The notes under the pieces: generated by a model | Seen by the model: the letters and a program-made list of their open reading frames with translations, nothing else | Told to the model about the DNA's origin: nothing | Database searches by the model: none | NCBI GenBank assembly: GCA_024231025.1 | Contig: JAAEQW010000256.1 | Location: 66,954 to 130,953, forward strand | DNA length: 64,000 bases | Source of the DNA: Candidatus Omnitrophota bacterium | Lineage (GTDB): Bacteria > Omnitrophota > Gorgyraeia > Duberdicusellales > 4484-171 | Reading direction: 5' to 3' | In this document: one piece after another, positions 15,129-49,559 of the stretch | Position numbering within the stretch: the stretch's first letter is position 1 | Layout of the letters: each line of letters opens with the position of its first letter | Made by a program: the position numbers and the translations under genes

Positions 15129-16048
15129 TGAAAATTTATGGCTTGATCGGATACCCCGTTAGACACAGCCTTTCGCCGGCAATGCATAATGCGGCCTTTG
15201 CTGCAGCCAAAATTGATGCGCAATACCGTTTATTTGCAATAAGACCAATTGAATTAAAGAAATTTCTTCTCGAAGGCGGCACTTCAATAGTTGATGCGAA
15301 TGATCAAATTGTTAACGCGAATGATATTTTGGGTTTTAATGTTACTATTCCGCATAAAATAGCTACTAAGGAAATTTTAGATAAAGCATATCCGGATTAT
15401 TACAAAGCTCGTTCGATAAGAAATAGTTGGTTTGTGCAAATTTGTGGTGCAGTTAACACAGTCATAAAGAGAGACACTGCAAAATATGGTCCGGTATTAG
15501 AGTATCACAATACTGATGGTTTGGGTTTTTGTCAGTCGTTGAAAGAGGATTTACAATTTAACCCTAAAGGGAAGAAGGTTCTCCTTCTTGGTTGTGGTGG
15601 AGCGGGGCGGTCTGTTGTTGGTGGCTTAACCTGGTCCGATGAAAGTGTGGATAAAATTTACATTTACGAAGAGGACGAGATGACCATGCGTATAATCGAT
15701 GATCATTTTAAAGCTATCGAAGATAAGTTTGAGGTTATTTCCAAAAAACTAATACCGGAGGTTATCGGAGATTGTTCCCTTTTGGTTAACGCAACGCCTC
15801 TTGGCATGAGAGATGGAGACCCTTCACCAATTGATAAAGAGTTACTTTTCAGTAATCTAGCGGTTTATGATGTAGTTTATAACCGTCAAACCCAACTTGT
15901 GATTGATGCTAATAACAAAGGGTGTCGAGCCGTAACGGGGCTAGGCATGCTTTTGCACCAAGGGGTTAAAGCTTGGGAGCTTTGGACGGGCATTGAGGCG
16001 CCGATTGATGTGATGCGTCAATCCTTGAAAATAGCAATGGAGGAGTAA
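15128..16048 (+). CDS. aroE: Shikimate 5-dehydrogenase
   Basis: N-terminal YGLIGYPVRHSLSPAMHNAAF. Start overlaps the leuA stop (TAATG). Confidence 0.8.
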   Translation: MKIYGLIGYPVRHSLSPAMHNAAFAAAKIDAQYRLFAIRPIELKKFLLEGGTSIVDANDQIVNANDILGFNVTIPHKIATKEILDKAYPDYYKARSIRNSWFVQICGAVNTVIKRDTAKYGPVLEYHNTDGLGFCQSLKEDLQFNPKGKKVLLLGCGGAGRSVVGGLTWSDESVDKIYIYEEDEMTMRIIDDHFKAIEDKFEVISKKLIPEVIGDCSLLVNATPLGMRDGDPSPIDKELLFSNLAVYDVVYNRQTQLVIDANNKGCRAVTGLGMLLHQGVKAWELWTGIEAPIDVMRQSLKIAMEE

Positions 16049-16866
16049 TGGAATTATTCATGATTTTTATTATTGGGTTGTGTTTTGGGAGTTTCTTGAA
16101 TGTATGCATTTATCGTTTGCCAAAAGAGCAGTCGATTGTAAAGCCTGGTTCGTTTTGTCCGAAGTGTAATACGCCAATAAAGTGGTATGACAACATTCCT
16201 TTGCTTGGCTATATAGCCTTAAGGGGGCAATGCCGCAGCTGTAAAGACAAAATATCGTTTCGTTATCCTTTTGTTGAACTTTTGACTGGACTTTTATTTT
16301 TGATTCTTTTTATGAAATTCAATTTAACCGCTGATTTCTATAAGTATGCTTTTTTCTTTTCTTTATTAATTGCTGTGTCGGTTATAGATATAGACTATCA
16401 TGCGATACCGGTATATTTTTGTTTTATTGGAATTGTTATCGGGTTGATGTTTAGCGTTTGGGAGACTGCTAAATTCTTGCGATTTGGCGTAACTGATTAT
16501 GCAATTTTGCCCATCGTTGAATCCTTTAAGGGAGTTGTTTTTGGTTTTGGCTTTGCGTATCTTTTTAAGTTTTTTGGAGATATACTTGTAAGTTTTTATC
16601 TTCAATTTCGCAAGCAGGAATCAATTGAAGGAGAAACTGAATCTTTAGGATTAGGTGATGTGGATTTTTTAGGGATGGTTGGTGTTTTTTTAGGGCTTAA
16701 GGGAGCGGTGCTGGTATTTTTTATCGCGCCTTTTATTGCTGTGATTTATGCCGTGTTTGCGATTACTTTTAAGAAGTCGCATCTTATTCCATATCTACCG
16801 TATTTGTCCTTAGCCACACTAGTTACATTTTTTTGGGGCAATGACATATTGAAACTAATATTTTAG
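16048..16866 (+). CDS. pilD: Type IV prepilin leader peptidase (A24 family) with an N-terminal Zn-finger
   Basis: CPKC...CRSC tetracysteine, multiple TM helices and a conserved Asp-containing core. Confidence 0.8.
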   Translation: MELFMIFIIGLCFGSFLNVCIYRLPKEQSIVKPGSFCPKCNTPIKWYDNIPLLGYIALRGQCRSCKDKISFRYPFVELLTGLLFLILFMKFNLTADFYKYAFFFSLLIAVSVIDIDYHAIPVYFCFIGIVIGLMFSVWETAKFLRFGVTDYAILPIVESFKGVVFGFGFAYLFKFFGDILVSFYLQFRKQESIEGETESLGLGDVDFLGMVGVFLGLKGAVLVFFIAPFIAVIYAVFAITFKKSHLIPYLPYLSLATLVTFFWGNDILKLIF

Positions 16867-31436: not shown

Positions 31437-32351
31437 ATGAAATATTCCATGATTTTTGTGTGTGTTTTTGCGGTTTTTTTCTGTGGCTGTGATGAAATTC
31501 CTTTTCTTTCGAAAAAGGCGCCCAAGCAGCAAGTTGCTGTCTCTCAAAAGGTTGCCAAAGAAGAGGTAAAAATAAAAGGTCCTCTTTTGGCGAGGGTCAA
31601 CAGTTGGGCGATTGGTTTAGATGATTTTGACGGTTACTTAAACAGTTTACGCCCATTGGCCGAAGCACAGGAATTGCCAATTGATAATTACGAATTTAAA
31701 GCGAGGTTGTTAAACGATCTTGTTAAAAATCAGGTATTGGCGCAGATTGCCATCGAGCAAGGGCTGGACAAAGATGAAGATATCGCAAGAGCGATGCGCG
31801 ATTACAAAACCACACTTCTTTCTTCGAAAATAAGAGCTAGCTTAGAAAATACAGTGGTAGTTTCTTATACCGAGTTAGAAGAGTTTTACGAAAAGAATAA
31901 AGCGTTTTTACGGAAGCCTCAAGAAGTAGACGTAAGCGAAATTGCATTAAATAGCGAGTTTGAGGCTAAAGAGGTGTATATTAAAATATTACAAGGTGAA
32001 GAATTCTCTTCTCTAGCACGGCGTTTTTCGGTTCTTGATAGCGCGAAAGATGGGGGAGCTTTAGGATTTTTGACTTATGATCCAGAGATAAAGTTTCAAA
32101 AATTTTGGGAAACCGCCGCAGCGTTAAAAAAAGGCGCTACTTCAAATATTTTCCAGGATGAAGTAGAAGGCAAGTGGTATATTGTTAAACTAAACGATGT
32201 TCGAGGCGGGCAAGAGATTCCTCTTGCTGAAGTTGAAGAAAATTTAAAGGCAGGATTAAAAGCCAATAAAATAGAGGAACAAGTCACCAATATGGCTGAT
32301 TCGTTCAAGGCAAGGGCAAAGGTTGAAATAAACGAGGATTTAATAAACTAA
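31437..32351 (+). CDS. Secreted parvulin-type peptidyl-prolyl isomerase (SurA/PrsA-like)
   Basis: Signal peptide and a PpiC rotamase domain (FSSLARRFSVLDSAKDGGALGF). Confidence 0.7.
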   Translation: MKYSMIFVCVFAVFFCGCDEIPFLSKKAPKQQVAVSQKVAKEEVKIKGPLLARVNSWAIGLDDFDGYLNSLRPLAEAQELPIDNYEFKARLLNDLVKNQVLAQIAIEQGLDKDEDIARAMRDYKTTLLSSKIRASLENTVVVSYTELEEFYEKNKAFLRKPQEVDVSEIALNSEFEAKEVYIKILQGEEFSSLARRFSVLDSAKDGGALGFLTYDPEIKFQKFWETAAALKKGATSNIFQDEVEGKWYIVKLNDVRGGQEIPLAEVEENLKAGLKANKIEEQVTNMADSFKARAKVEINEDLIN

Positions 32352-32360
32352 GGTGGAAAA

Positions 32361-33338
32361 ATGAAAGATAAAATTGTACCGTTGGCGATCGGCATAATTC
32401 TTGCGGCAGTTGCCACATTTATGATTAAGTCATATTTGGATGAGCAAAAAAAAGAAATGATTCAGCAAACTCGCGAAACAGTGATCAGCATGCGCGAAAA
32501 TCAGTCTGCCGTGTTTGTTGCAAGGAGGGATATCCGCAAAGGCGTTCCCATTCAGGCTAGTTTAGTGGATACGGCAGTGCTTGATAAACGCAACGTTAAT
32601 CCAAAAGCAGTAAGGTATTTTAGTGAAATTGAGAATAAGTCAACAGCAAAAGCTATTCGTGCGGGTGAGCAAATCACAACCGATGCCCTAAGAACTACTC
32701 GCATAGAAGCCGGTGGTCCTGGTGGCGGTCCGGTTACTTTTTCGATGGTTATTCCCGAAGGCAAGCGGGCGGTTTCGGTTTCGGTTGATAACGTTGCTTC
32801 AATTGTGCATATGATGCGTCCCGGGGATCACGTTGACGTTTTTGCGATAATCGCTTTTCCTCTGCCGGGGCAGCAAGGCAAACAACTTATGAATATTCCT
32901 CTTTTTCAGGATGTGGAGGTTTTGGCAGTGGGCGACCAGTTTAGTGAATCCAAATTAGCCAAGGTTGGGTCAAGCATAAAAAAGCTAGTTAACGAGAAAA
33001 AGAAAGATGAAAAGAAAAAGAAAGCAGCTAATAACCCAGCGATTACCCTTGCCTTAGATCCTCAAGAGGCCAACATAATTTCTTTCGTTCAAGAAGAAGG
33101 CAAAGTAAGACTTGCTTTACGTTCGCCAAACGATACTAGTAAAGTTAATTACAGAGCGCAAGTTGCTCAACAGCAGGTGGCACCATTAGTTACTACGCAG
33201 TCGTTTTTTCAGTATTTAGCGGCTAATGGATTAGTTACTCTTCCTAAACCAAAACCAACAGCGCCACCAAAACCCAAAGGTCCTCAGGTCGAAATATATC
33301 GCGGCCAGGAGAAGGAGGTTAAAACACTTAGAAAATGA
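32361..33338 (+). CDS. cpaB: Flp/Tad pilus assembly protein CpaB/RcpC-like
   Basis: N-terminal TM then the SAF-like VARRDIRKGVPIQASLVD. Confidence 0.7.
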   Translation: MKDKIVPLAIGIILAAVATFMIKSYLDEQKKEMIQQTRETVISMRENQSAVFVARRDIRKGVPIQASLVDTAVLDKRNVNPKAVRYFSEIENKSTAKAIRAGEQITTDALRTTRIEAGGPGGGPVTFSMVIPEGKRAVSVSVDNVASIVHMMRPGDHVDVFAIIAFPLPGQQGKQLMNIPLFQDVEVLAVGDQFSESKLAKVGSSIKKLVNEKKKDEKKKKAANNPAITLALDPQEANIISFVQEEGKVRLALRSPNDTSKVNYRAQVAQQQVAPLVTTQSFFQYLAANGLVTLPKPKPTAPPKPKGPQVEIYRGQEKEVKTLRK

Positions 33339-34915
33339 GAAAAAAAACTATAATTACTCTTGGTATTATCGGATGTTTGCTTGGTGGTGTCTTAGGCCAT
33401 TCTCAGGATTTTATTGAAGAGATCACCCTAATTTCCGGAGAAACTGTTTCAGTACCGGTTTATTCCCCTAAGAAGGTGGGGGTTGCCGATCCTAATATTG
33501 CCGATATCGTAACCACAAGTGATAGGGAAGTTGTTTTAATCGGCAAAATGAAAGGAAGAACAAGCTTTTTTGTGAATGACAGCACCGGTGATTACACCTA
33601 TAAGGTGCAGGTTATTCCTGAAGATATGGATCATTTACTCAAACGTGTGCGCAGTATCCTTAAGGACATGAGCTTAAAGGACGTAAAAGTAAAACCAGTT
33701 GCCGACCAGGGTAAAGTTTTACTTATTGGAAGCGTGCGCACCGTAGAAGACAAAGAGCTTTTAGAGGTTGGTTTGGGGGAATTATTTCCTAAAGTAACCG
33801 ACTTGGTAAAGATCGAAGAAGCGGCTCTTGTTGAAATTTTAGTTGAAGTGTTAGAGATGAGCACCGGCGCAACCAAAGAACTTGGTTTTGTTCCGCCGCG
33901 AACGGTTACTTTTGCTGAAGCCGCCGTTCCTCCTGCTGGGATTTCAGCAACAAGTTTGGTAAGAATTGCTCCGCTGCAGCGTTCTGATGTATACAGTTGG
34001 AAGTGGGACATGCTCGAAAGCGAAGGAAAAGTAAAGGTTCTTTCACGTCCGCGGGTGATATGCCAGAGCGGTAAAGAAGCAGAAATTTTAGTTGGCGGCG
34101 AAGTGCCGATATTTACAACTTCGGTTGCTAGTGCCGGCGGAGAAGGAACAACAGTTGAATATAAGGAATACGGCATAAAGCTAAAGATCAATCCTACCGT
34201 AACCGCGACCGAAAGAGTTGAGTTGGGCTTGAAAATTGAGATAAGCGAACTAGGTGAGGCCGAATACATTGGTACAGCGCTTGACCCTACCGCCAGAGCT
34301 TATCCGATTAAAAAGAGAGATATCTCTACATCACTTCATCTTACCGATGGTTCGACTCTTGCTATTGGTGGGTTGATAAGACAAAAAACAAGCGAAGATT
34401 TAATCAAATTTCCTTGGTTATCTGAAGTCCCTGTTTTGGGTGCTTTTTTTCGTCATAAGAAAAGCGAAAGCGGTGAAGGTTCAACTGCAAAAGGCGACAC
34501 TGAACTTTACATAACCATTACGCCGAAGGTTGTTTACACTGCTGATCCTAAAAGCCTAGAAGAGAAGCGTGTGATCGCCCAAGAAGAAAAGTTTATTGAT
34601 AAGTACAAAAAGTCGGACATTCCCGAAGAGCTGCAAAATTATATTTTAGAAATTCAAAGAATGATTCTAGCTAATATTAGCTATCCTTCGGTGCTTGTTG
34701 GTACCGGATGGGAAGGCAATATTGCCTTAAGACTTACAATTGTAGAAACCGGAGAACTAAAAGAGGTGCAGGTTCTTAAAGCTTCAGGCTATAAGATTTT
34801 TGACGAGCAAGCCTTAAAGCTCGTTAACTCTTTAAAGTATGCTCCGTTTCCTTTTGATAAGCCGTTAGAAGAATTAAAAATTGATGTACCGATAGTTTAT
34901 CGCGAAGGAAATTAA
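33335..34915 (+). CDS. cpaC: Secretin (CpaC/RcpA-like) fused to a C-terminal TonB_C domain
   Basis: Secretin core LSRPRVICQSGKEAEILVGGEVPI. The C-terminal ~90 aa (YPSVLVGTGWEGNIALRLTIVETGELKEVQVLKASGYKIFDEQALKLVNSLKYAPFP) match the TonB C-terminal fold. Confidence 0.75.
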   Translation: MRKKTIITLGIIGCLLGGVLGHSQDFIEEITLISGETVSVPVYSPKKVGVADPNIADIVTTSDREVVLIGKMKGRTSFFVNDSTGDYTYKVQVIPEDMDHLLKRVRSILKDMSLKDVKVKPVADQGKVLLIGSVRTVEDKELLEVGLGELFPKVTDLVKIEEAALVEILVEVLEMSTGATKELGFVPPRTVTFAEAAVPPAGISATSLVRIAPLQRSDVYSWKWDMLESEGKVKVLSRPRVICQSGKEAEILVGGEVPIFTTSVASAGGEGTTVEYKEYGIKLKINPTVTATERVELGLKIEISELGEAEYIGTALDPTARAYPIKKRDISTSLHLTDGSTLAIGGLIRQKTSEDLIKFPWLSEVPVLGAFFRHKKSESGEGSTAKGDTELYITITPKVVYTADPKSLEEKRVIAQEEKFIDKYKKSDIPEELQNYILEIQRMILANISYPSVLVGTGWEGNIALRLTIVETGELKEVQVLKASGYKIFDEQALKLVNSLKYAPFPFDKPLEELKIDVPIVYREGN

Positions 34916-37056
34916 TGGCTCAAACCATTGTTTTGTTTAGTACCAAGGGAGGAACAGGTAAAACCCTGATTTCTGCCAATCTTGCCTTTAGCCTCGCTAA
35001 GCTTAAGAAAAAAGTTTTACTCATTGATGGCGATTTAGATGTTGTTGGCAATATGGCCTGGATGCTTAATGTCTCTCCAAACAGGTCTATGGCCGATGTT
35101 ATGTATCTTTTGAAAAGAAAGAAGGTGTTTGATATTGGCGAATATATCACAAAAAAATATCAAAATGTTCACTTTCTTCCCTGCATTCTTAAGCCTCAGC
35201 AAAGTTCGCATTTTGATCCCGATTTGATAAGAGAAGTTATTGAGCCGTTACGTGAAAATTATGACTACATAATTATTGATGGCGGAAAGGCTTTTAGTGA
35301 AAGTTTGATCAGATTTTTTGACGAAGCAAATCTATTTTCATTAATTGTTACACCGGATGTTATTTCGGTTTATCAAACCAAATGGGCATTGGATACATTA
35401 CAATCTTTGTATTTTCCTCTTAAAATGTTGAAAATTGTTCTAAACCGTGCCGAATCGCTTGCGAGCATAAGCTTGCAGGAGATAAAATTAGTTTTTCCTT
35501 GTGAAGTAATCGCTAAAGTTCCTTCCGAAGGTAAAACAGCGATGCTTTCGGTTAACAAGAAAGTTCTTCTAGTAAATGAATTTCCCTTTAGTAAGATAGC
35601 AGCTTCAATAAAGCAATTTGCTAAAGATTTAGTTGATCGATCAGATATTTTTCTTCAGCGTAAAGAGATAAAAACGATTAAAGGCGAATTCGCAAAGAAA
35701 AAAGATCTTTGGGAAAAGCAAGGCCTGAAAGGAAATTTGGAATCCGAACTCAAAGAAGACCAAGAGTATGACGAAATCTCAATGCTAAAGCAAAAAATCC
35801 ATCAAAAGTTAATTGAAAATCTTAATTTGAAAAAAATGGATTATGAGAGTTTTTCTGAAATCGGAAAAGCTAAAGAAATAAGAAAACGCGCCGAACGCCT
35901 TATTGGCGAATTTTTAGCCGGCGAAACACATTCTTTAATTGGCTCGGTCGAAACCAGAAAAAAGCTTACTCTTGAAATTATTGACGAAGCGCTAGGCTAT
36001 GGTCCGTTAGAAGATCTTCTAAAGAACCAAGACATAACTGATATTATGGTAAACAATAAAGATGAAATTTACATTGAAGAAAGAGGCAAATTACAGCTTA
36101 CCAGTAAAAGATTTGTTTCTAACGAACAGGTAAAAACAGTAATCGAACGAATTATAGCTCCGATTGGCCGGCGGATTGATGAAAGTTCTCCTTACGTTGA
36201 CGCGCGTCTTCCTGATGGATCGCGGGTTAACGCGATAATCTCTCCATTAGTTTTAACTGGTCCGACATTGACGATAAGAAAATTTAGAAAAGAGCGCTTT
36301 AAACTAAAAGAACTTATTGAATATGAAGCGTTAAGCGAAGACATGGGCAAATTTATTGAGGCGTGTGTTTTAGCACGAAAGAATATAATTGTTTCCGGTG
36401 GTACCGGAAGCGGCAAGACGACAGTGTTAAATATTTTGTCTTCTTTTATCCCTGACGATGAACGTATCATAACCATTGAAGATGCCGCAGAACTTAAGCT
36501 TGATCAGCGTCACTGGGTAAGACTCGAATCACGTCCGCCTAATATAGAAGGTAAGGGGGCAATCGCTATTCGGGATCTTTTTAAGAACACCTTACGAATG
36601 CGTCCGGATAGAATCATTGTTGGTGAGTGCCGCGGGGTTGAATCGTTAGACATGTTACAAGCAATGAATACCGGCCATGACGGCTCAATGACAACAATCC
36701 ATGCTAATTCTACCCATGATATTTTAACTCGTCTTGATTCAATGATTCTAATGAGTGGAGTGGAGTTGCCGCTGCGTGCGATACGTGAAATGATCGCTTC
36801 AGCAATTCACATCATTGTGCATACTCAGCGCCTAAGCGATGGAAGCCGAAAAGTTGTTCAGGTTACCGAATTAACAGAGCTTGACGATGATATGCATATA
36901 AGTCTTAAAGATGTATTCAAATTTAATCAAACCGGCCTTGGCGAAAATGGTGAAGTGCAGGGCTACTTTGGTCCTACCGGATATATTCCTTCCTTTTATG
37001 ATGAAATAAAGGTGAGGGGGATACCTCTTCTTGAAGAAATTTTCAAGCCTAAATGA
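34915..37056 (+). CDS. cpaF: Fusion of a ParA/MinD-like CpaE/TadZ domain to a CpaF/TadA secretion ATPase
   Basis: N-terminal deviant Walker A STKGGTGKT; C-terminal VirB11-like SGGTGSGKTT with Asp/His boxes. Confidence 0.8.
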   Translation: MAQTIVLFSTKGGTGKTLISANLAFSLAKLKKKVLLIDGDLDVVGNMAWMLNVSPNRSMADVMYLLKRKKVFDIGEYITKKYQNVHFLPCILKPQQSSHFDPDLIREVIEPLRENYDYIIIDGGKAFSESLIRFFDEANLFSLIVTPDVISVYQTKWALDTLQSLYFPLKMLKIVLNRAESLASISLQEIKLVFPCEVIAKVPSEGKTAMLSVNKKVLLVNEFPFSKIAASIKQFAKDLVDRSDIFLQRKEIKTIKGEFAKKKDLWEKQGLKGNLESELKEDQEYDEISMLKQKIHQKLIENLNLKKMDYESFSEIGKAKEIRKRAERLIGEFLAGETHSLIGSVETRKKLTLEIIDEALGYGPLEDLLKNQDITDIMVNNKDEIYIEERGKLQLTSKRFVSNEQVKTVIERIIAPIGRRIDESSPYVDARLPDGSRVNAIISPLVLTGPTLTIRKFRKERFKLKELIEYEALSEDMGKFIEACVLARKNIIVSGGTGSGKTTVLNILSSFIPDDERIITIEDAAELKLDQRHWVRLESRPPNIEGKGAIAIRDLFKNTLRMRPDRIIVGECRGVESLDMLQAMNTGHDGSMTTIHANSTHDILTRLDSMILMSGVELPLRAIREMIASAIHIIVHTQRLSDGSRKVVQVTELTELDDDMHISLKDVFKFNQTGLGENGEVQGYFGPTGYIPSFYDEIKVRGIPLLEEIFKPK

Positions 37057-37223: not shown

Positions 37224-38645
37224 TTGATGCATCGACAAAAAGCGAAATTAAAAAATTTAATTTTAAAATCTTTTAAAAAGAATCCTTATTTTGGTGTACG
37301 TAAGATCGCCAAAGATTTAAAAGAGAAACACAATATCTTTGTTTCAAAAAGCTATGTTCACAAAATTCTAACCCAACAAGAGCCCGATGCGCAAACCGGC
37401 TGTAAAAAAAGTATTCTCGCCTATAAGAAAAAACACCTTGATGACTGCGGAGCGTTTTTGTTGCGGGCGATAGATTCGCACCTGGGATTATTCAACAATC
37501 TAACTAGCCTATTGCAGCCACATTTTCCTAAGTTGCAAGCGAAACTCCTTAAGAAAATTATTGTTTTCTTTTCACTTTCTTCATTTTTAGGATACGACCT
37601 AAACCAGGCATCAGAAGAAAAAAGCCTGCTTAGGGCCGCGGATTTATATGTTTATCCAGCTCGAAATATAAAATACTTCCTAGATCAGTTGAATGATTGC
37701 AAGCCGACGATCAGCCTTGACAATTTTGCTAAAAGCTTAGTTTCGGTGGCAAGCGTGAAATTTTCTTTTGTAAATGGCACAAAAAGCTATTGTGATGGGA
37801 GTTTTTCTTGTTTTTGGGGTAAACCTGCATTTATTGATGAATTTTTTGTTCCTTATAGTTTGGCACAAAAGAGAGTAAAGGCGATAATAAAGAATAAAAT
37901 CATCATGATCAACTATACTAAGAGTTTTGACTATCTTTCGTCGTTAACCACGAGTTTTATTGATGGTTTAGCAAGCGGAATAAAAACAATCGAACTTCTC
38001 GACAAAAAAGGTAATGTTTTGGAGGAATTTACTCCACCTCCGGTGAAAATGTCTTTTTTGATTGGATATTACCCCCAAATTCTCTCTAAAGGGGTGGTTT
38101 TTTTGCGTAAATCAGCCCGTTTTAAGAAATTTGACGCAATAGATGGCGATATCCACTATATTTCGGCCCTGGCTAGATTTTTACAACCAAAAGGGAGCAA
38201 AGGGCTTATATTAAATAGTGTACTTATTAACCGAAAACGTCAAAGTTTGCCTTCGTGGGGACTGCTTACCGATAAGCGGTCAAATTTCACTCTTTTTTTA
38301 AAAAGGTATCTTAATTCTTGGCCGTATATGGATAAGGTTTTTAAGGAGGAGATGGAGTTAGTTGAGAAGTTTTACACGCAAAGCAATAAAACAAAGGAGT
38401 TGGGCGATTTTGTGCCCGAGCACGTAGTTTTGAGTAAATTTGACGATTTCAAGGGAATTGGCGCTATTTTGGCGGCTGTTTTCAGGGATCGAGTGGCTCG
38501 GGTTGAATTGAGGGGCAAAAAGGGCCAAGTTGCCACCGGTAAAGATTATTTGCGAATTAAACTCTTAAGATTCTCTCCGGCATTTAAGAGGAAGTTCAAC
38601 AAATTCTCATTCTCAATTGATAAGCGCAATGTTTTCCTCATCTAG
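37224..38645 (+). CDS. Hypothetical protein with an N-terminal HTH-like region; candidate transposase-like cargo between two inverted-repeat elements
   Basis: A 473-aa ORF flanked by element copies B and C. Only the N-terminus (FGVRKIAKDLKEKHNIFVSKSYVHKIL) resembles transposase HTH modules. Confidence 0.45.
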   Translation: MMHRQKAKLKNLILKSFKKNPYFGVRKIAKDLKEKHNIFVSKSYVHKILTQQEPDAQTGCKKSILAYKKKHLDDCGAFLLRAIDSHLGLFNNLTSLLQPHFPKLQAKLLKKIIVFFSLSSFLGYDLNQASEEKSLLRAADLYVYPARNIKYFLDQLNDCKPTISLDNFAKSLVSVASVKFSFVNGTKSYCDGSFSCFWGKPAFIDEFFVPYSLAQKRVKAIIKNKIIMINYTKSFDYLSSLTTSFIDGLASGIKTIELLDKKGNVLEEFTPPPVKMSFLIGYYPQILSKGVVFLRKSARFKKFDAIDGDIHYISALARFLQPKGSKGLILNSVLINRKRQSLPSWGLLTDKRSNFTLFLKRYLNSWPYMDKVFKEEMELVEKFYTQSNKTKELGDFVPEHVVLSKFDDFKGIGAILAAVFRDRVARVELRGKKGQVATGKDYLRIKLLRFSPAFKRKFNKFSFSIDKRNVFLI

Positions 38646-39150: not shown

Positions 39151-39163
39151 ATAGAGGTAATTA

Positions 39164-39339
39164 TGTTAATAAGGCGCAAAAAATTGTGTGCACAAACAGT
39201 TCTTGAGTATATTCTCTTGACGGCGGCGGCAGTAATTGCCATTGCGGGGTTCGGAAAGTTTTTTAATATAATTGTAGGAGATTCCGGTGCATTAACCCGG
39301 CATTTTAATGTGATGAAGCAAAGTATAACCGGACAATAA
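39164..39339 (+). CDS. Small pilin-like protein with a class-III-like signal (58 aa; not in the ORF track)
   Basis: RBS AGAGGT; N-terminus MLIRRKKLCAQTVLEYILLTAAAVIAIAG. Confidence 0.55.
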
Positions 39340-39342
39340 AGT

Positions 39343-39498
39343 ATGAAGCGCAGAACAAAAACTCAAAGCATCGTTGAATACGTAATGCTGTTTATGATTG
39401 TGTCAGCAGCAATTATGATGACTTATAAATACCTGAACCGCTCGATGAACGCTCGCTTAAAACAGGTTCAGGAAGAATTAGAATACGAAGCATACTAA
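39343..39498 (+). CDS. Small pilin-like protein (51 aa; not in the ORF track)
   Basis: N-terminus MKRRTKTQSIVEYVMLFMIVSAAIMM. Confidence 0.5.
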   Translation: MKRRTKTQSIVEYVMLFMIVSAAIMMTYKYLNRSMNARLKQVQEELEYEAY

Positions 39499-39694
39499 TG
39501 ATTTTTTAACAGGGAGGTATTAAAATTCCAAATAACAAATCCCAAATCACAAACAAATCACAATGATTAAAATTCAAAACAGGAAAAGACACGTTTTTGG
39601 TCATTTGATATTGGAATTTGGTAATTGTTTGTGATTTGTTTTTTGGAGCTTGTATTTTTTGACAATATGATTTCTTAATGGGGGAGGTGAAGGG

Positions 39695-39931
39695 ATGTTG
39701 ATACGCAAAAAAGCGCAAGGAATTTTGGAGTATACCCTGCTTTTAGGGGCAATCATCGCGGTGGTCGTTACGGTAATGATGAAAAAGGATAGCGGTGTAG
39801 CCGCTAGGGTTAAAAAGACTTATGAAAAAGCAGGGACGGCGATTGATAAAACAAATAAAGACTTAAACGTTGGCGTTTTTGCACCACCGGCGAGTACTGT
39901 TCCCGGAGAAGTAACCGTGCGGCGGCGCTGA
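39695..39931 (+). CDS. Pilin-like protein with a class-III-like signal
   Basis: RBS GGAGGTGAAGGG; N-terminus MLIRKKAQGILEYTLLLGAIIAVVV. Confidence 0.75.
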   Translation: MLIRKKAQGILEYTLLLGAIIAVVVTVMMKKDSGVAARVKKTYEKAGTAIDKTNKDLNVGVFAPPASTVPGEVTVRRR

Positions 39932-39975
39932 TGATGATTAGTATATGGTAATTACGTTTTTAAGGAGGTGAAGCA

Positions 39976-40167
39976 ATGTTGATACGCAAAAAAGCACAGG
40001 GAATTTTGGAGTACACCCTGCTTTTAGGGGCAATCATCGCGGTGGTTGTTACGGTGATGATGAAAGAAGGGGGCGTAGCAAGTAAAGTTTCAGATACTTA
40101 CGAGAAAGCAGCGACGGCAATTGAGACGACAACCGATGATTTAACGTCGGGTGTTTTTGGGCCTTGA
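39976..40167 (+). CDS. Pilin-like protein, a paralogue identical to the previous one over its N-terminal 30 aa
   Basis: N-terminus MLIRKKAQGILEYTLLLGAIIAVVV. Confidence 0.75.
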   Translation: MLIRKKAQGILEYTLLLGAIIAVVVTVMMKEGGVASKVSDTYEKAATAIETTTDDLTSGVFGP

Positions 40168-40206
40168 TCGATATATAGTAACCATGTTTTTAAGGAGGTG
40201 AAAGAA

Positions 40207-40617
40207 ATGTTATTACGAAAAAAAGCACAATCAACCGCGGAATATGCAATTACCATTGGTTTAGTAGTTGCGGTTGCCGCAGGCATCATGCAAGTTGCCC
40301 TAAAGAATGGAATGCGTCAAAAGAGCAAGGAAGCTAATGATATTTTGCGCCGAGCAGGTACCGCTGCGATGGGGAGTATGGACGTTGACACGACTATTTT
40401 TGGTGGTGCGTCAACGGGTCTTAACCCTGATGCACAAGGGGCGTTTAACGTTTACAACGAAAGTGCGCGCTCAACAGTGGTTGACCAAGAAAGCTATCTT
40501 GATAAAACTATTCTTGAGAAGGGCGGAGCCGAAAAGAAACTTCAACACCGTGAAACGGTAACTACGTCGATGGATGTCGATAATTTTGAAAATGTAAATA
40601 AAGATACTACGCCATAG
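40207..40617 (+). CDS. Pilin-like protein with a longer C-terminal domain
   Basis: N-terminus MLLRKKAQSTAEYAITIGLVVAVAAG. ATG 40207 has the same RBS spacing as its paralogues; the ORF track begins at GTG 40198. Confidence 0.7.
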   Translation: MLLRKKAQSTAEYAITIGLVVAVAAGIMQVALKNGMRQKSKEANDILRRAGTAAMGSMDVDTTIFGGASTGLNPDAQGAFNVYNESARSTVVDQESYLDKTILEKGGAEKKLQHRETVTTSMDVDNFENVNKDTTP

Positions 40618-40654
40618 AAAATGAATAATGAAACCTAAAAAGGGGGGTGAAAAA

Positions 40655-41143
40655 ATGTTTTTACGCAAACAAAGAAAGTCGCAATCTATCTTAGAGTACG
40701 CTCTTTTATTGGGGGTAATTGTTGCCGCGATTTTGATTATGCAAACATTCGTTAAAAGAGGTTTTCAAGGGCGAATGAAGGATTCCGCCGATAGAATCGG
40801 CGGCGGTGAAACATTTTCAACTAGTGATACCGCAATTATTAGCACCAATACGATGACTTCTGACCAAGTTATTGTTGACGTTAAGGGCACCGCAGGTGCA
40901 GATGGTGCGATGCATGGTTTACTCACCGATGCGATTGGTGCAAAGCTTGCCGATCAAGCCGTAGTCGATATCGTAGGAAAGGGTGCGGCCGCTGCGAACG
41001 CACGTTTTGGTGGTGACATGACTTCCGAGACATTGCAGAAAACTTCTGATGCAACCAGTGAAGCTTATCGTCAAGCGGATTACACCGAGGCTGTAGTTGA
41101 AGATTTTGAGGATGACGACATTATTGACGCATTTGGTGACTAA
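40655..41143 (+). CDS. Pilin-like protein with a C-terminal domain
   Basis: N-terminus MFLRKQRKSQSILEYALLLGVIVAAIL; the likely start is the internal ATG 40655. Confidence 0.7.
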   Translation: MFLRKQRKSQSILEYALLLGVIVAAILIMQTFVKRGFQGRMKDSADRIGGGETFSTSDTAIISTNTMTSDQVIVDVKGTAGADGAMHGLLTDAIGAKLADQAVVDIVGKGAAAANARFGGDMTSETLQKTSDATSEAYRQADYTEAVVEDFEDDDIIDAFGD

Positions 41144-41222
41144 ATAGGCCATTGCTTGCGTATAGAGCTTTAGCGGTTTTTGAGTGTGCGCTATGCGCGC
41201 GTGAGCAAAAGGGTAAAGGATT

Positions 41223-41591
41223 ATGAAACTTAGAAAAGGACAGAGCATTTTGGAGTATGCCGTTTTACTTGCGGTGATTATTGCGGCACTGGCGGTTATG
41301 CAGACTTACATTAAGCGAGCCTATCAGGGTCGCCTAAAGCGTGAGGCGGATAATTTGGGCCAGCAATATTCTCCGGGGCACACAGTTACATTAAACGCAA
41401 CTGTGACCGAAAGTGATTCGGTAACCTATAGTGGTGGCAAAACCGACCCTGATGATTCTGATCTTATCGATGGAGAAGTGGAAGTTCCCGATGGGGTAAG
41501 CGTAACCTTTACCAAAACCAGCACGCGTACCGAACGCAGAGAAGGAATAGATTCTTACGCTACAGAGTTTGACGACGAAGATGACGATTAA
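41223..41591 (+). CDS. Pilin-like protein with an acidic C-terminus
   Basis: N-terminus MKLRKGQSILEYAVLLAVIIAALAV. Confidence 0.7.
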   Translation: MKLRKGQSILEYAVLLAVIIAALAVMQTYIKRAYQGRLKREADNLGQQYSPGHTVTLNATVTESDSVTYSGGKTDPDDSDLIDGEVEVPDGVSVTFTKTSTRTERREGIDSYATEFDDEDDD

Positions 41592-41663
41592 GATAAGGTT
41601 GTAGCGATTGCATGCAGGTATAATCTTAGTAGATTATACCTGAAGATTATACCAGGAGGACGA

Positions 41664-42170
41664 GTGAGTATGTTTTTGCGCAGGGGCCATAGTGTGATTG
41701 GGTGGATGCTGGTCTTTTCAGTGTTAATTTCGGTTACGGCCCTATTTAGAGCATCTTTAAAGCGCGAAATCGATAAAAAAGCGCGCGCTACCTCTGACTA
41801 TATTTTCTGGACCGGTTGGAAAACCGCAGACGGGACCGAAAATATGGAAGTTCCCCGCGATGACGACATTTTCAAACGCGATAAAAATTCAAAAGCAAAA
41901 ATTGTTGCCCATAACGAACAGAAACAATCTGTCGTCGAACGGAAAAAAGATTTTGTCACGATCGATTACAGTAGAGATCTTGATGGTAAACTGCATTCTG
42001 ATGTGACGAGATATAAAAGGGGTATTAATTATAACTATGAGAATGAGGACGCAAGAAGGATAATTTCTGCAGGAACCGGGAAGAATCAAGAGTATCTTTT
42101 AGATCGATTTGATCTTAATCATGATAAGTTTAAAATGGATGCTTCAGAGGACTTTGACACTGATGAATAG
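41664..42170 (+). CDS. Minor pilin / pseudopilin-like protein
   Basis: N-terminal hydrophobic helix MLVFSVLISVTALF following a basic stretch; lies in the pilin array. Confidence 0.4.
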   Translation: MSMFLRRGHSVIGWMLVFSVLISVTALFRASLKREIDKKARATSDYIFWTGWKTADGTENMEVPRDDDIFKRDKNSKAKIVAHNEQKQSVVERKKDFVTIDYSRDLDGKLHSDVTRYKRGINYNYENEDARRIISAGTGKNQEYLLDRFDLNHDKFKMDASEDFDTDE

Positions 42171-42966
42171 TAAATTTAAAAAAAGAGTTAGGGCGCAAGC
42201 TATAGCGGAGCTGGCAATTATGGGCAGTTTGATTATGGTTGCCTTCAGTATGATTTTATCTTATGGCCATCGCTTAGACAGAATACAAAACTTAAAAATG
42301 AAAACGTTCAGAGAGGCTCTGCGCAAAGCTTATTATAAAAACAGCACAGTAAACGTTACCAAGCGGGTCGATAGCCGTTCGGTGGATTTATTTAATTTTG
42401 GTAAGGGTCAGCCTTCAACCGCGCAGGCATCGGCGGCGGTAATGTGGCACAAAGGTATGCCGGGTGCGCAAGACACAAATGATGCTGCATTTAGCTTTTA
42501 TAGCATAAATGGTGTATATATTGGAGAGTACGGGTTCGCTGAGACTACTGGGCTTCCTAGGTACCACAAAACAGTTATTGGTGCAACTGGGGCAGAGTCT
42601 GAAATTCATAGTCCGGTGAGCGTTTATCGTGAAGAGTCAAAAAGGTATAGTTTTTATTCTGGAAATAAAGAGAAATCGGAAAGCGAGGATGGCATAGAAA
42701 ACGTTCGCTATGCTGATTTGCGTGACGATCTTGATATAAAAGTTAAAACTCGTTTTGATGCTGCCAAATACGATTCACGATTGGGTCCGGATGATCCCGA
42801 GCAGGAGTCACCTAAATATACACAGCATAGAAAATATGATTTAAAACAAACCGCGGTCTTTGATCCTTTGCTTGATGATGATACAATAACTTACAAAGAT
42901 GTAGAGGATGTCGATAGTGATTATCATGGTATTCATGTTGAAAGAACTCGGCATACGCCAAATTAA
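42163..42966 (+). CDS. TadE-like pseudopilin
   Basis: N-terminus MNSKFKKRVRAQAIAELAIMGSLIMVAF resembles the TadE/TadF N-terminal motif. The start overlaps the previous stop (ATGAATAG). Confidence 0.5.
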   Translation: MNSKFKKRVRAQAIAELAIMGSLIMVAFSMILSYGHRLDRIQNLKMKTFREALRKAYYKNSTVNVTKRVDSRSVDLFNFGKGQPSTAQASAAVMWHKGMPGAQDTNDAAFSFYSINGVYIGEYGFAETTGLPRYHKTVIGATGAESEIHSPVSVYREESKRYSFYSGNKEKSESEDGIENVRYADLRDDLDIKVKTRFDAAKYDSRLGPDDPEQESPKYTQHRKYDLKQTAVFDPLLDDDTITYKDVEDVDSDYHGIHVERTRHTPN

Positions 42967-46261: not shown

Positions 46262-47110
46262 ATGGATATAAAAAAGTTAGCCGTGATTTTAAGTTTGTTT
46301 ATTGTTGGTTCGGTTTTTGCGGTGGACTTCCCTATTCCTCAGCCGCCACAAGGGCAAATGATTGACACCCATAGTATTGCTATGGGGGGGATTAATGTTA
46401 CCTCTTATGTTTATAGAAGCAGCAAAAAAAAGAGTGAGTTGGTTGATTACTACAAAGAGTTGTTTGATAAAAAAGAATTCAAACTCATTTTAGATCAAAA
46501 AGATTCCTCACGCGACAAGCGGCTTCTGCGTTATCGGCGCGAAGATTTAGTGATGACAGTTGCGATTTTGCCCAAAGATGGCGAAACTGAAGTTGTAATC
46601 GCAAAGTATATTCAACCTGAAGGAACTGCACCGCCGGAGGAGCGTAAAATGTCTTTTCAGGAAATGCTTGGGCAAATGCCAAAAGAAGACGAGGCCGGGG
46701 GTGATTTGGATGTTGTTCCGCGACCGCCGGATAGTGTGCGCATTCATTCTTATGTTCGAGGAAATGTGGCAGTTATTATTTATAATAGCGCTATTTCAGT
46801 AGAATCGTTAAGGGATTTTTACGATAATCAAATGGGATTGCACGGTTGGAAAAAAAATAAAGATATCGCAACCGGCGAGGTGGCACGTTCTTATAATACT
46901 GAAAAAGGTTTAAAAAAGGCATCGCCGATGGGAATGAGCTTTGCTTCAGATGTAAATGTTGGACAACTTATGCAGGGCGGTCGCAAGTTGCTTTTTCATG
47001 GACGGATGGGTAGTGCCGATATCACCCTATTAAATGCCGGTTCTGAAGATGAACCGCTAACGATAGTAACGATTAATTACAGAGAAGACGAAGAAATATA
47101 CGGAGAGTAG
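46262..47110 (+). CDS. Secreted hypothetical protein
   Basis: Signal peptide MDIKKLAVILSLFIVGSVFA; tightly linked to the TadG-like gene. Confidence 0.5.
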   Translation: MDIKKLAVILSLFIVGSVFAVDFPIPQPPQGQMIDTHSIAMGGINVTSYVYRSSKKKSELVDYYKELFDKKEFKLILDQKDSSRDKRLLRYRREDLVMTVAILPKDGETEVVIAKYIQPEGTAPPEERKMSFQEMLGQMPKEDEAGGDLDVVPRPPDSVRIHSYVRGNVAVIIYNSAISVESLRDFYDNQMGLHGWKKNKDIATGEVARSYNTEKGLKKASPMGMSFASDVNVGQLMQGGRKLLFHGRMGSADITLLNAGSEDEPLTIVTINYREDEEIYGE

Positions 47111-47111
47111 C

Positions 47112-47306
47112 ATGTTGCCAAGAAAGAAAAAATTATCACAAGCTGTAATTGGCTATGCTATTTTATTCTGCCTTATAGTATCAGCTTTGCTTATTGTTGG
47201 CCGCTACGTGAGAAATGCTTTTTCCGGTAGAGTCCGCCAAGCCGGTGATTCATTCGGCAGCGGCGAAGTATACGCCCCCTACGGTCCCGATGCCAGTAGG
47301 GATTAG
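47112..47306 (+). CDS. Small pilin-like protein
   Basis: N-terminus MLPRKKKLSQAVIGYAILFCLIVSALLIV. Confidence 0.55.
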   Translation: MLPRKKKLSQAVIGYAILFCLIVSALLIVGRYVRNAFSGRVRQAGDSFGSGEVYAPYGPDASRD

Positions 47307-47847: not shown

Positions 47848-48690
47848 ATGACTACAGCAATTTATTTAGCAGTTTTTGTCTCGGCAGTCCTTATCTTTAA
47901 TGTTATCGCCACTTATTTGTTTACCACTTGGTTTAAATGGCAGGCGAAACAGGCAAAGATGATGACAAACAAGCTGGATGATTCCTTTATCTTTCTTGAA
48001 AAGAAAAAGGTAATTGTCTTAACCGCTGCCCCTTTGATTCTAGGCTTTATTACTTACCTTTTATTAGGTAACATATTTATTGCTATTGCCGGTGGCTCTA
48101 TCGGTTTGGCTGTACCAACACTAATCGCTAATGCTGCAAAACAAAAACGAATTAAGGATTTTCAGGATCAGCTAGTCGACACCTTGATGATTTTTTCTTC
48201 TTCTCTTAAGGGCGGTTTAAGTTTTATTCAAGCGCTGGAGATTGTTTGTGAAGAAATGCCCACTCCAACCAGCCAAGAGTTTGGCCTTATATTAAAGGAA
48301 AATAAGCTTGGTGTGGGTTTAGAGGATTCACTGGAAGGATTGCGCAAACGAATGCCTTTAGAAGAGGTTGGGCTTATTGTGAGTTCGATTTTAGTGGCTA
48401 AAGAAACCGGCGGTGAGTTAACCAGGGTTTTTAGCCGTTTGGTTGAGACCATTCGCGATAATGTTAAATTAAAAGAAAAAATAGCAACGCTTACTTTGCA
48501 AGGTAAATTGCAAGGCTACATTATGGCGTGCTTGCCATTTGTTTTTACCTTTTTCGTTTATAAACAGAATCCGGAGCATTTTAGTGTTATGCTGGAGTCT
48601 CAATTTGGCCAGATGCTTCTTGCTGGTGCGATTGTTTGGCAGATAATTGGTATGGTTTTAATCAGAGTAATGAGTAAATTAAAAGTATGA
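47848..48690 (+). CDS. tadB: Tad pilus inner-membrane platform protein TadB-like (T2SS F domain)
   Basis: T2SSF-type membrane topology; sits next to the tadC-like gene. Confidence 0.7.
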   Translation: MTTAIYLAVFVSAVLIFNVIATYLFTTWFKWQAKQAKMMTNKLDDSFIFLEKKKVIVLTAAPLILGFITYLLLGNIFIAIAGGSIGLAVPTLIANAAKQKRIKDFQDQLVDTLMIFSSSLKGGLSFIQALEIVCEEMPTPTSQEFGLILKENKLGVGLEDSLEGLRKRMPLEEVGLIVSSILVAKETGGELTRVFSRLVETIRDNVKLKEKIATLTLQGKLQGYIMACLPFVFTFFVYKQNPEHFSVMLESQFGQMLLAGAIVWQIIGMVLIRVMSKLKV

Positions 48691-49559
48691 TTTTTGTTGT
48701 AATTTTTGTTTTAATATTGGCGGCTACTTATATGATTATGAGCGGGATTAGCTCTTTTACATATGAGAAGAAGGAGCGTTTTTATGCTCACCTTCCTTCT
48801 AAATCCAAGACGAATATATTTACTACCGGTATTTTTAGAAACATTTCAACGTTGATTAATCGACCGTTTGCCGAGGTGCCTTATTTAAGGAGCATTAATG
48901 CAAAAGCCAAGTTCTTAAAACTTCCTTTTGGGTCGTTAGAGATATTGCTAATGAAAGAGCTTCTAATGGTAGGTGGGGGAGTTGCCGGGTTTATACTTTT
49001 TGAGCCGATGCACGGGGTTATTGGTGCTTTTGTTGGTTTTTTATTGCCTGATTTTGTGGTTAATAGTAAGGTTAATGGCAAAAAGGATGCTCTCTTGCGT
49101 GTATTTCCCGAAACGGTAGACATTATGGATTTGTGTATCGGTGCGGGGTTAGATTTTTTAGCGGCTTTGCGTTGGGTGGTTGAAAAATCAACACCGAGTC
49201 CTTTTATCGAACAGCTCGAGGTAGTTTTGAGCGAAATACAAGTTGGCAAAAGCCGAAGCGAGGCGCTGCGTGATATGGCTAAACGGGTTAAGCTTCCTGA
49301 TATAAATAGTTTTGTGCGAACGATAGTTCAGGCGGAGCGAATGGGTATTTCTATTGAAGAAGCCTTACGTAATTTGTCTGAAGATACACGGATGACCCGC
49401 TTTCAAAGAGGAGAGAGATATGCGATTAAAGCTGGTTTAAAAATGTTGATTCCTCTAATGTTATTTATTCTGCCTGTAATTTTGGTTGTAGTAGCCGGTC
49501 CGGTTATTATTCAATTCACCCAGGGCGATCTTATTCCCGGTTCAGGGGTAATGCAGTGA
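48687..49559 (+). CDS. tadC: Tad pilus inner-membrane platform protein TadC-like (T2SS F domain)
   Basis: Overlapping start; T2SSF domain. Confidence 0.7.
   Translation: MIFVVIFVLILAATYMIMSGISSFTYEKKERFYAHLPSKSKTNIFTTGIFRNISTLINRPFAEVPYLRSINAKAKFLKLPFGSLEILLMKELLMVGGGVAGFILFEPMHGVIGAFVGFLLPDFVVNSKVNGKKDALLRVFPETVDIMDLCIGAGLDFLAALRWVVEKSTPSPFIEQLEVVLSEIQVGKSRSEALRDMAKRVKLPDINSFVRTIVQAERMGISIEEALRNLSEDTRMTRFQRGERYAIKAGLKMLIPLMLFILPVILVVVAGPVIIQFTQGDLIPGSGVMQ

Follow-up and report, generated by a model that had tools for sequence, protein, structure and literature searches.

A Tad secretin with a C-terminal TonB_C domain and a TadZA-type fusion ATPase in Candidatus Omnitrophota

Tad pili are seen as a central means by which Omnitrophota and Bdellovibrio-like predators attach to host or prey, and the targeting, assembly and envelope connection of a Tad secretin are known for a single pilotin pair only. 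In this pair, from Pseudomonas aeruginosa, the β-barrel of the secretin RcpA is followed by an unstructured S-domain, the last four residues of which enter the tetratricopeptide repeat (TPR) groove of the lipoprotein pilotin TadD (PDB 8odn; PMC10499894), a contact that is essential for secretin assembly (PMC10499894). The machine is placed at the pole or another landmark by TadZ/CpaE in Caulobacter, Aggregatibacter and Bdellovibrio (bioRxiv 10.64898/2026.07.08.737194). Bdellovibrio bacteriovorus has an ‘atypical TadZA fusion ATPase’, composed of an N-terminal TadZ, a linker and TadA, which is required for predation and binds the polarity hub RomR through its TadZ-plus-linker portion (bioRxiv 10.64898/2026.07.08.737194). 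Here we describe the tad locus in a stretch of 64,000 nucleotides (the window) from a Candidatus Omnitrophota bacterium (assembly GCA_024231025.1, contig JAAEQW010000256.1, positions 66,954 to 130,953), in which the secretin ends in a TonB_C domain and the CpaF/TadA motor ATPase is joined to a ParA/MinD-fold domain of the CpaE/TadZ lineage.

Tad systems have been reported in Omnitrophota, and the Tad locus of Velamenicoccus archaeovorus is expressed in co-culture (Seymour et al. 2023, PMC10066038); the words secretin, TonB and fusion do not occur in its text. Complete Omnitrophota genomes are the subject of a 2026 preprint, which mentions ‘TonB C-terminal domain’ genes, the nature of which it does not state, in flanking regions where secretion and pilus genes abound. 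No description of a secretin that ends in a TonB C-terminal domain turned up in a full-text literature search. We regard the present protein as a previously undescribed form of the Tad secretin that extends through the phylum, and its TonB_C domain suggests that the pore is assembled or docked in a different way; the ATPase fusion has an architecture already described, that of Bdellovibrio TadZA. Judged by its gene content, the locus appears to encode the core that spans the envelope in a Tad (Flp) pilus machine of the Omnitrophota type, made of standard parts with two accessory functions fused onto core proteins.

The secretin and its TonB_C domain

Three open reading frames (ORFs) read in the window encode CpaB, the secretin and the fusion ATPase, in this order (Table 1). 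At both junctions the stop codon of one ORF overlaps the start codon of the next, as ATGA between cpaB and the secretin gene (33335–33338) and as TAATG between the secretin and ATPase genes (34913–34917). An earlier note on this DNA had given the same three ORFs and assigned them to Tad/Cpa machinery; the ORFs were re-read as such, and Pfam, NCBIfam and PDB matches agree with the assignment.

The secretin begins with a cleavable-type signal peptide, followed by the secretin domains. Pfam detects T2SS-T3SS_pil_N at residues 44–93, and the BON-like stretch of the N-domains is below threshold. The best match of the barrel core among PDB sequences is RcpA (8odn, E 1e-27). Residues 447–523 match Pfam TonB_C (PF03544; 4.6e-14, 53 bits, cutoff 24.6), and the NCBIfam model TIGR01352 tonB_Cterm scores 40.5 bits (cutoff 27.1). 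In a PDB sequence search, the C-terminal 113 residues match the C-terminal domain (CTD) of Helicobacter pylori TonB (6sly/5lw8, E ~2e-6, 26–27% identity). The AlphaFold model of residues 431–522, with a predicted local distance difference test score (pLDDT) of 83–91, has the topology α-β-β-α-β, and Foldseek superposes the predicted TonB_C region on 5lw8 with a template modelling (TM) score of 0.71 over 91 columns. The C-terminal TonB fold of about 90 residues that the earlier note had read from the sequence is thus present by family models, PDB sequence and predicted fold.

Among 26 homologues, mean pairwise identity is 42% in the N-domains, 62% in the barrel core, 13% in the linker and 43% in TonB_C. 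The linker varies between 22 and 34 residues and TonB_C has a constant length of 96–97 residues, within which Y450-P451, G473, S484-G485, D490, P519 and Y522 are invariant. The secretin thus ends in a globular, conserved domain, TonB_C, which is joined to the barrel by a variable tether. At the opposite end of the chain, the sequence IIGC at residues 11–14 was considered as the lipid attachment site of a liposecretin of the HxcQ type and rejected, the cysteine being shifted or missing in most of the 26 homologues.

The fusion ATPase

The ATPase is a single ORF of 713 residues, in which family hidden Markov models (HMMs) delimit a ParA-like domain at residues 1–250 and CpaF at residues 313–711. 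The ParA-like domain matches AAA_31/CbiA/ParA at residues 3–181 (2.5e-16) and minD_arch at residues 4–250 (5.5e-28). It has a complete deviant Walker A motif, KGGTGKT (residues 11–17); K11, D38 and D122 never vary among 26 homologues, and at least 90% of these keep K16 and T17. The domain is modelled with pLDDT 80–94. Its best Foldseek match is 3ea0 (TM 0.90), followed by MinD structures (range 0.84–0.90), and in a search of the N-terminal 265 residues against PDB sequences MinD is matched at E 1e-18.

A charged linker then takes the place of the disordered N terminus of stand-alone CpaF. When the C-terminal 448 residues were searched against the PDB, residues 307–703 aligned to residues 96–489 of CpaF (9e24), and the Caulobacter CpaF structures 8rkd/9e24 were matched at E 5e-120. 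T2SSE is found at residues 361–642 (2.9e-63), and TIGR03819 is matched at 1e-99. The motor motifs include Walker A, GGTGSGKTT (residues 495–503), RMRPDRIIVGECRG and AMNTGHDGS; the Walker A, Walker B, Asp-box and His-box motifs do not vary among 26 homologues. The earlier note had described a CpaE/TadZ domain joined to CpaF in these 713 residues: the ParA-type and CpaF parts are both there, and of CpaE/TadZ only the ParA-like half is present.

Conservation in Omnitrophota and distribution in other phyla

Homologues were tabulated as the top 120 for each protein, drawn from NCBI, JGI, ENA and Logan assemblies. All 120 secretin homologues listed (39–57% identity, about 500–560 residues) carry PF00263 together with PF03544. 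The ATPase homologues listed (59–74% identity, about 711–725 residues) carry ParA-type families together with PF00437, with the exception of five proteins of about 1,150 residues. For both proteins, every named homologue among the matches listed is from Candidatus Omnitrophota/Omnitrophica. An exact-sequence look-up of the window ATPase returned no match, and its homologue P0132 was used instead for context. In the complete 1.28-Mb genome CP070684.1 the gene order is CNNM, CNNM, PIN_5 (opposite strand), peptidyl-prolyl isomerase (PPIase), RcpC, Secretin::TonB_C, ParA::CpaF, a 477-residue helix-turn-helix (HTH)-like protein and small pilins, and a divergent Omnitrophota locus (L004), with a secretin of 607 residues, retains the order PPIase, CpaB, Secretin::TonB_C, fusion ATPase. 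Both fusions are the normal state in Omnitrophota, not a peculiarity of one genome.

The metagenomic proteins of about 1,150 residues among the ATPase homologues (P0122, P0123, P0129, P0130 and P0137) are tandem-CpaF proteins. In the sequences of P0122, P0123 and P0137 there are three tandem CpaF-like modules per chain, each with GGTGSGKTT and DMLQAMNTGH, so that two chains would make a covalently linked hexamer. Database names clash for both families: the secretin is a ‘TonB family protein’ in NCBI and ‘pilus assembly protein CpaC’ in JGI, and JGI has ‘septum site-determining protein MinD’ for the fusion ATPase where NCBI has ‘TadA’ or ‘ATPase, T2SS/T4P/T4SS family’.

The distribution of the two architectures in other phyla was examined by scanning one genome per GTDB species with the fusion-ATPase alignment as query; the best 80 of at least 600 stretches were kept, and these loci were followed up by ORF analysis and family HMMs. 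ParA::CpaF in a single ORF occurs in Bdellovibrionota (L008 and L011–L014, including the isolate Bdellovibrio sp. HCB288), in a metagenome-assembled genome (MAG) labelled ‘Deltaproteobacteria’ (L006), in Elusimicrobiales (L040, L064), in WOR-3 (L051) and in unclassified MAGs (L005, L029). ORF analysis found cpaE and cpaF as two adjacent genes in Firmicutes, Actinomycetota, Chloroflexota, Acidobacteriota, Planctomycetota, Nitrospirales and others; cpaE, of about 380–440 residues with the ParA-like domain at about 130–400, lies directly 5′ of cpaF, of about 430–490 residues. A far wider spread of the fusion had been suggested by tblastn coverage (query residues 2–710) in Firmicutes, Actinomycetota, Chloroflexota and Acidobacteriota, and was rejected when ORF analysis resolved these matches into adjacent separate genes.

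The ParA-like domain of the Omnitrophota fusion shares 24–27% identity with that of the Bdellovibrionota fusions and 30–32% with that of separate CpaE, and the identity of the CpaF domain outside Omnitrophota is flat at 54–58%. By this pairwise comparison the fused forms of different phyla do not group.

The TonB_C family HMM matched the secretin in all five Omnitrophota loci, the window counted, and in none of about 45 secretins of other phyla that lie beside cpaE/cpaF in the best 80 stretches of the scan. When eight sampled secretins were searched with Pfam, TonB_C was found in the Omnitrophota one only. The earlier note had called both fusions unusual, a word that needs qualification: both are the rule in Omnitrophota, and TadZA is known from Bdellovibrio. 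CpaE and CpaF, which the note had described as normally separate proteins, are encoded by adjacent separate genes in many phyla and by a single ORF also in Bdellovibrionota, Elusimicrobiales and WOR-3.

Several secretins of other phyla have features of their own. Long C-terminal extensions are present in those of an Acidobacteriaceae locus (L066:7495-9492), with a SPOR match at the cutoff, of Piscinibacter (L076:7335-9530), with an SH3_3 match below threshold, and of an Acidobacteriota locus (L045:7238-9592), where about 330 residues belong to no family. The C terminus seems to be a site at which envelope-contact modules accrete, since the sampled Tad secretins bear differing add-ons there. 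‘Mini’ secretins of 240–315 residues, which are barrel cores with no more than a pil_N domain added, lie beside fusion ATPases in Elusimicrobiales (L040:9189-9911, L064:9216-9962) and in unclassified MAGs (L029:3990-4784, L005:3109-4056). A Firmicutes MAG (UBA3943) with a Tad secretin encodes a stand-alone TonB_C protein of 246 residues (L007:17250-17990, 3e-23) 5 kb 3′ of cpaF, which could be a coincidence or a trans version of the pairing of secretin and TonB_C.

The surrounding locus

The components of a Tad/Flp (type IVc) system that are present comprise the CpaF/TadA motor, TadB and TadC, Flp-type prepilins, an RcpA/CpaC secretin and RcpC/CpaB (Table 1). A PPIase gene heads the conserved block PPIase–CpaB–secretin–TadZA, and the same slot is filled in three Omnitrophota loci (L001, L002, L004). 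The HTH-like protein of 473 residues encoded 3′ of the ATPase gene has an orthologue in the same position in CP070684.1 (477 residues, 400 bits); its gene takes the slot used by tadB in the Bdellovibrionota and Elusimicrobiales loci.

Table 1 Features of the tad locus and associated genes, in window positions
Feature	Positions	Strand	Evidence
PilD-type prepilin peptidase	16048..16866	+	A24_N_bact 9.8e-38; Peptidase_A24 3.6e-12
Parvulin-type peptidyl-prolyl isomerase (SurA/PrsA-like)	31437..32351	+	Pfam Rotamase_2/Rotamase 3e-10
CpaB/RcpC periplasmic alignment protein, 325 aa	32361..33338	+	Pfam RcpC 6e-25, SAF; TIGR03177 CpaB 2.6e-38
Tad secretin (RcpA/CpaC type) with C-terminal TonB_C, 526 aa	33335..34915	+	Pfam, NCBIfam, PDB, model
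Secretin N-domains, T2SS-T3SS_pil_N and BON-like, aa 28-168	33416..33838	+	Pfam; family HMM; pLDDT 77-92
Secretin β-barrel core, aa 223-401	34001..34537	+	Pfam Secretin 2.7e-40 at aa 227-400
Variable linker between barrel and TonB_C, aa 402-430	34538..34624	+	13% identity; low-confidence helix in model
TonB_C domain, aa 431-524	34625..34906	+	Pfam, TIGR01352, PDB, Foldseek; S-domain position of other secretins
TadZA-type fusion ATPase, 713 aa	34915..37056	+	Pfam, NCBIfam, PDB, model
ParA/MinD-fold, TadZ/CpaE-like domain, aa 1-250	34915..35664	+	AAA_31/CbiA; minD_arch; no receiver-like N-terminal domain
Charged linker, aa ~251-306	35665..35832	+	Low pLDDT at aa 270-287; 30% identity, variable length
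CpaF/TadA motor ATPase, aa 307-713	35833..37053	+	PDB, T2SSE, TIGR03819, motifs
Conserved 473-aa protein, weak N-terminal HTH	37224..38645	+	HTH_21 6e-5, under its cutoff
About 8 Flp-like prepilin/pseudopilin genes, N-terminal motif K/R..Q[GS]xxEY	39163..42170	+	Translations; weak Class_IIIsignal matches
TadG/TadE-like protein, 472 aa	44841..46259	+	Pfam Tad (PF13400) 1.8e-7
TadB and TadC inner-membrane platform proteins	47848..48690, 48687..49559	+	Pfam T2SSF 1.6e-18, 7.8e-18

The pilin array has a homologous counterpart in L001. With a further ORF at 47112–47306, about nine pilin ORFs of 51–171 residues are found, each with a K/R-rich leader, the motif Q[GS]xxEY and a hydrophobic helix. As in Flp-type prepilins, E and Y would stand at positions 5 and 6 after a cleavage site whose position is itself inferred. 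The genes tadB and tadC lie 10.8 kb 3′ of the fusion ATPase gene, beyond the pilin array and the TadG-like gene, in agreement with the distance of about 11 kb given by the earlier note. A TadV/CpaA peptidase was not found within the tad locus; the PilD-type enzyme, 16 kb 5′ of the tad genes and the sole A24 peptidase in the window, is therefore the candidate for prepilin processing. Its gene sits between those for shikimate dehydrogenase and chorismate synthase.

Equivalents of TadD, RcpB and CpaD, and TPR proteins in general, were not found in the locus by Pfam (to E 0.1) or PDB sequence searches; the unassigned ORFs at 42109–42966, 43200–44825, 46262–47110 and 49556–50080 were searched for pilotin equivalents. 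The first of two small proteins without a PDB sequence match, a PsbP-like protein of 174 residues (49556–50080), is encoded directly 3′ of tadC, and the second, a secreted-looking protein of 282 residues (46262–47110), follows the TadG-like gene; both are candidate periplasmic accessory proteins of the Tad machine. The protein of 541 residues at 43200–44825, within the pilin/TadG region, is acidic, very rich in cysteine and without a Pfam match.

Giant ORFs flank these genes at 474–7727 (2,417 residues, two HATPase_c-type matches) and at 54653–60961 (2,102 residues, no Pfam match). Giant proteins beside pilus and secretion genes are an Omnitrophota trait (2026 preprint on complete Omnitrophota genomes). 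Two ORFs encode IS200-like Y1 transposases (7972–8691, Y1_Tnp 4e-19; 21174–21887, 6e-9).

Proposed working of the machine and alternative explanations

The best overall explanation, which we hold with moderate confidence, is an Omnitrophota Tad core with a TadZA-like motor ATPase and with TonB_C as a built-in assembly or docking module. The 713-residue protein would work like Bdellovibrio TadZA. Its CpaF part would assemble into a hexamer, the motor by which Flp pili are extended and retracted on the TadB/TadC platform, and its ParA/MinD-type domain, probably dimerising upon ATP binding, would couple the position or assembly of the motor to a cellular landmark in a fixed 1:1 stoichiometry. The 13–14 TonB_C copies of the secretin would form a periplasmic collar round the base of the barrel, just below the outer membrane, in which each domain could clamp a short β-strand of a partner through β-strand addition; this partner might be the neighbouring protomer, CpaB or an envelope protein. 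TonB_C would supply in cis the assembly, stabilisation or docking that is elsewhere the task of a separate pilotin or accessory protein. We propose the collar because the S-domain position is held by TonB_C and because no TadD-, RcpB- or CpaD-like gene was seen in the locus, and an assembly or docking module is the best inference.

Several points weigh against this explanation. The placement of TonB_C relative to the barrel is not fixed by the secretin model, a monomer with a predicted template modelling (pTM) score of 0.38. The partners of TonB_C named above are candidates. A pilotin could be encoded beyond the 64-kb window. By Pfam, the secretin is devoid of the N0/STN domain that is invoked in the TonB3–PilQ and ExeB–ExeD hypotheses, and the absence of secretin::TonB_C beyond Omnitrophota is a statement on about 45 sampled secretins from one scan. 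As for the ATPase, in sequence and fold the ParA-like domain is similar to MinD, to FleN and to 3ea0, a protein of the ParA family; and the fusions in different phyla may be independent events, which is plausible because the adjacency of cpaE and cpaF is near-universal, so that partners such as RomR need not be common to them.

The main rival for TonB_C is that it anchors the secretin to the cell wall by binding peptidoglycan, as AMIN domains do for PilQ, rather than binding a protein strand. The earlier note had suggested that the domain, by contact with peptidoglycan or the outer membrane, gives the pore a different anchorage; the idea is reasonable, and binding to peptidoglycan is one of several possible forms of it. 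A periplasmic domain on a flexible linker would be able to reach the wall, and Kaserer and colleagues are said to have reported peptidoglycan binding by the TonB C terminus in 2008. At the same position, another Tad secretin has a weak match to SPOR, a peptidoglycan-binding family, and a third has a weak SH3_3 match, but both matches are at or below the Pfam cutoffs. The binding documented for TonB and TolA CTDs is β-strand addition to protein motifs, and a Pfam search of the present secretin for the peptidoglycan-binding families LysM, SPOR, OmpA_C and AMIN gave no match. We consider a peptidoglycan anchor somewhat unlikely.

For the ATPase, the N-terminal domain might be a MinD/ParA-type ATPase that was recruited apart from CpaE/TadZ, in which case ‘CpaE–CpaF fusion’ would be a misnomer. 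Its top PDB sequence matches are MinD (4v03, E 1e-18) and FleN, its top folds are 3ea0 and archaeal MinD, its Walker A motif KGGTGKT is the same as that of MinD, and JGI labels many homologues MinD; a solved TadZ structure is neither among the PDB sequence matches (E ≤ 1e-3) nor among the 50 Foldseek matches listed. However, when the domain was searched against 1.84 billion representative proteins, its nearest relatives that stand alone were proteins of about 400 residues that match at residues ~140–385, and those sampled bear Response_reg or TadZ_N (residues 1–130) ahead of the ParA-like domain. An HMM of the domain finds CpaE-type genes directly 5′ of cpaF in about 55 sampled loci from many phyla, and the fused domain itself fills the place of cpaE, after the secretin gene and before cpaF. 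The assignment to CpaE/TadZ is made because of this library search and gene context, not of a match to a solved TadZ. The fused domain is thus a member of the CpaE/TadZ lineage without its receiver-like N-terminal domain (ARD/TadZ_N), which is absent from the 713-residue protein, the ParA-like match beginning at residue 3; a separate recruitment from MinD is improbable.

TonB_C might also tie the pore of the pilus to an energy system of the Ton/Tol kind, or to TonB-dependent transporters, for example by secretin gating or TonB-box competition, but this is very improbable. The domain is a genuine TonB_C, in which the YP and SG motifs are conserved, and type IV pilus assembly in P. aeruginosa needs TonB3 (PMC5285504), but here it is carried by an outer-membrane barrel and not by an inner-membrane anchor. 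The features of a TonB transducer, namely an N-terminal inner-membrane helix with SHLS, a proline-rich spacer and an ExbBD-binding motif, are absent from the secretin protein, and none of the window ORFs scanned matches the ExbB, ExbD or TonB-dependent-receptor families. As it has neither the inner-membrane anchor, nor the ExbBD-binding motif, nor the proline-rich spacer, the secretin::TonB_C protein is not a TonB energy transducer, and because TonB_C is attached to the outer-membrane pore a TonB-like motor connection is impossible. The NCBI label ‘TonB family protein’ is misleading for a protein with neither the N-terminal membrane helix nor the proline-rich spacer, and this label, like the JGI label ‘MinD’, can mislead metabolic or lifestyle inference. 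Finally, although the window is a single metagenome-derived sequence, the chance that either fusion is an assembly or frameshift artefact, which the earlier note had wanted checked, is negligible, because both ORFs are continuous, the junction regions align without a change of frame, and the same architectures recur in more than 100 homologues listed from independent assemblies and in the complete 1.28-Mb genome.

A phylum-wide secretin with a TonB-type domain in place of the pilotin-binding tail is a test case for pilotin-independent assembly, and likewise for the long-suspected link between TonB-like proteins and secretins. The fusion might even be read as a ‘Rosetta stone’, indicating that domains of the TonB CTD type bind and organise secretins directly; we regard this as unlikely. 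If true, it would account for the dependence of secretin or pilus assembly in other bacteria on TonB-like proteins such as TonB3/PocAB and ExeB/GspB, and would establish a means of assembling or docking secretins that is self-contained, needs no pilotin and serves a whole phylum of ultra-small, host-dependent bacteria. The ATPase fusion adds little, other than that the TadZA design is found repeatedly, in several phyla whose members are small or predatory.

Comparison with known systems

The closest counterpart of the ATPase is tad locus 1 of B. bacteriovorus HD100, where the TadZ–linker–TadA layout is likewise contained in one polypeptide and tadZA adjoins rcpC and rcpA, as here. The tad loci of Bdellovibrio are without TadV, and a shared prepilin peptidase of the type IVa pilus system was proposed and tested (bioRxiv 10.64898/2026.07.08.737194); the present locus is also without TadV, and the sole A24 peptidase of the window is of the PilD type. 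Both hosts are small bacteria with a predatory or parasitic way of life (for Omnitrophota, PMC10066038). In contrast, the ParA-like domains of the two fusions share just 24–27% identity, no nearer than stand-alone CpaE. In Bdellovibrionota tadB directly follows tadZA, whereas here tadBC is 10.8 kb away, with the gene for the 473-residue HTH-like protein and the pilin array in between, and the secretin of Bdellovibrio sp. HCB288 (L014) is without TonB_C, unlike that of Omnitrophota.

Stand-alone CpaE/TadZ, as in Caulobacter CpaE and Aggregatibacter TadZ, is also a Tad-specific ATPase of the ParA/MinD fold, with its gene between those of the secretin and CpaF. It is a separate polypeptide and has an N-terminal receiver-like domain of about 130–150 residues; the Omnitrophota fusion shares neither property.

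The secretin resembles RcpA in having a pil_N-type N-domain and a β-barrel, with the post-barrel C terminus as the accessory-binding end. Where RcpA has a short unstructured S-domain, the Omnitrophota secretin has a linker of about 29 residues and a folded TonB_C domain of 96 residues, and where RcpA has TadD as its partner, no TadD-like gene is seen in the Omnitrophota locus.

The C-terminal domains of TonB and TolA, which bind their targets through β-strand addition (PMC12204202), share with this domain (PF03544) the fold and the signature residues YP and SG. In TonB, the domain ends a protein that is anchored in the inner membrane, rich in proline and energised by ExbBD; here it is placed on an outer-membrane pore, and the topology is inverted.

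Other secretins depend on TonB-related factors. The assembly of ExeD requires ExeB, which binds the periplasmic domains of this secretin (PMC4098917), TonB3/PocAB is needed for the assembly and localisation of P. aeruginosa type IV pili, with a proposed contact to PilQ (PMC5285504), and a β-strand interaction of such factors with the periplasmic domains of secretins has been hypothesised (PMC4098917, PMC5285504). The proposed target of ExeB and TonB3 is the N0 domain, which the Omnitrophota Tad secretin does not have. ExeB/GspB and TonB3 are separate inner-membrane proteins that act in trans, whereas the TonB_C domain described here is part of the secretin itself.

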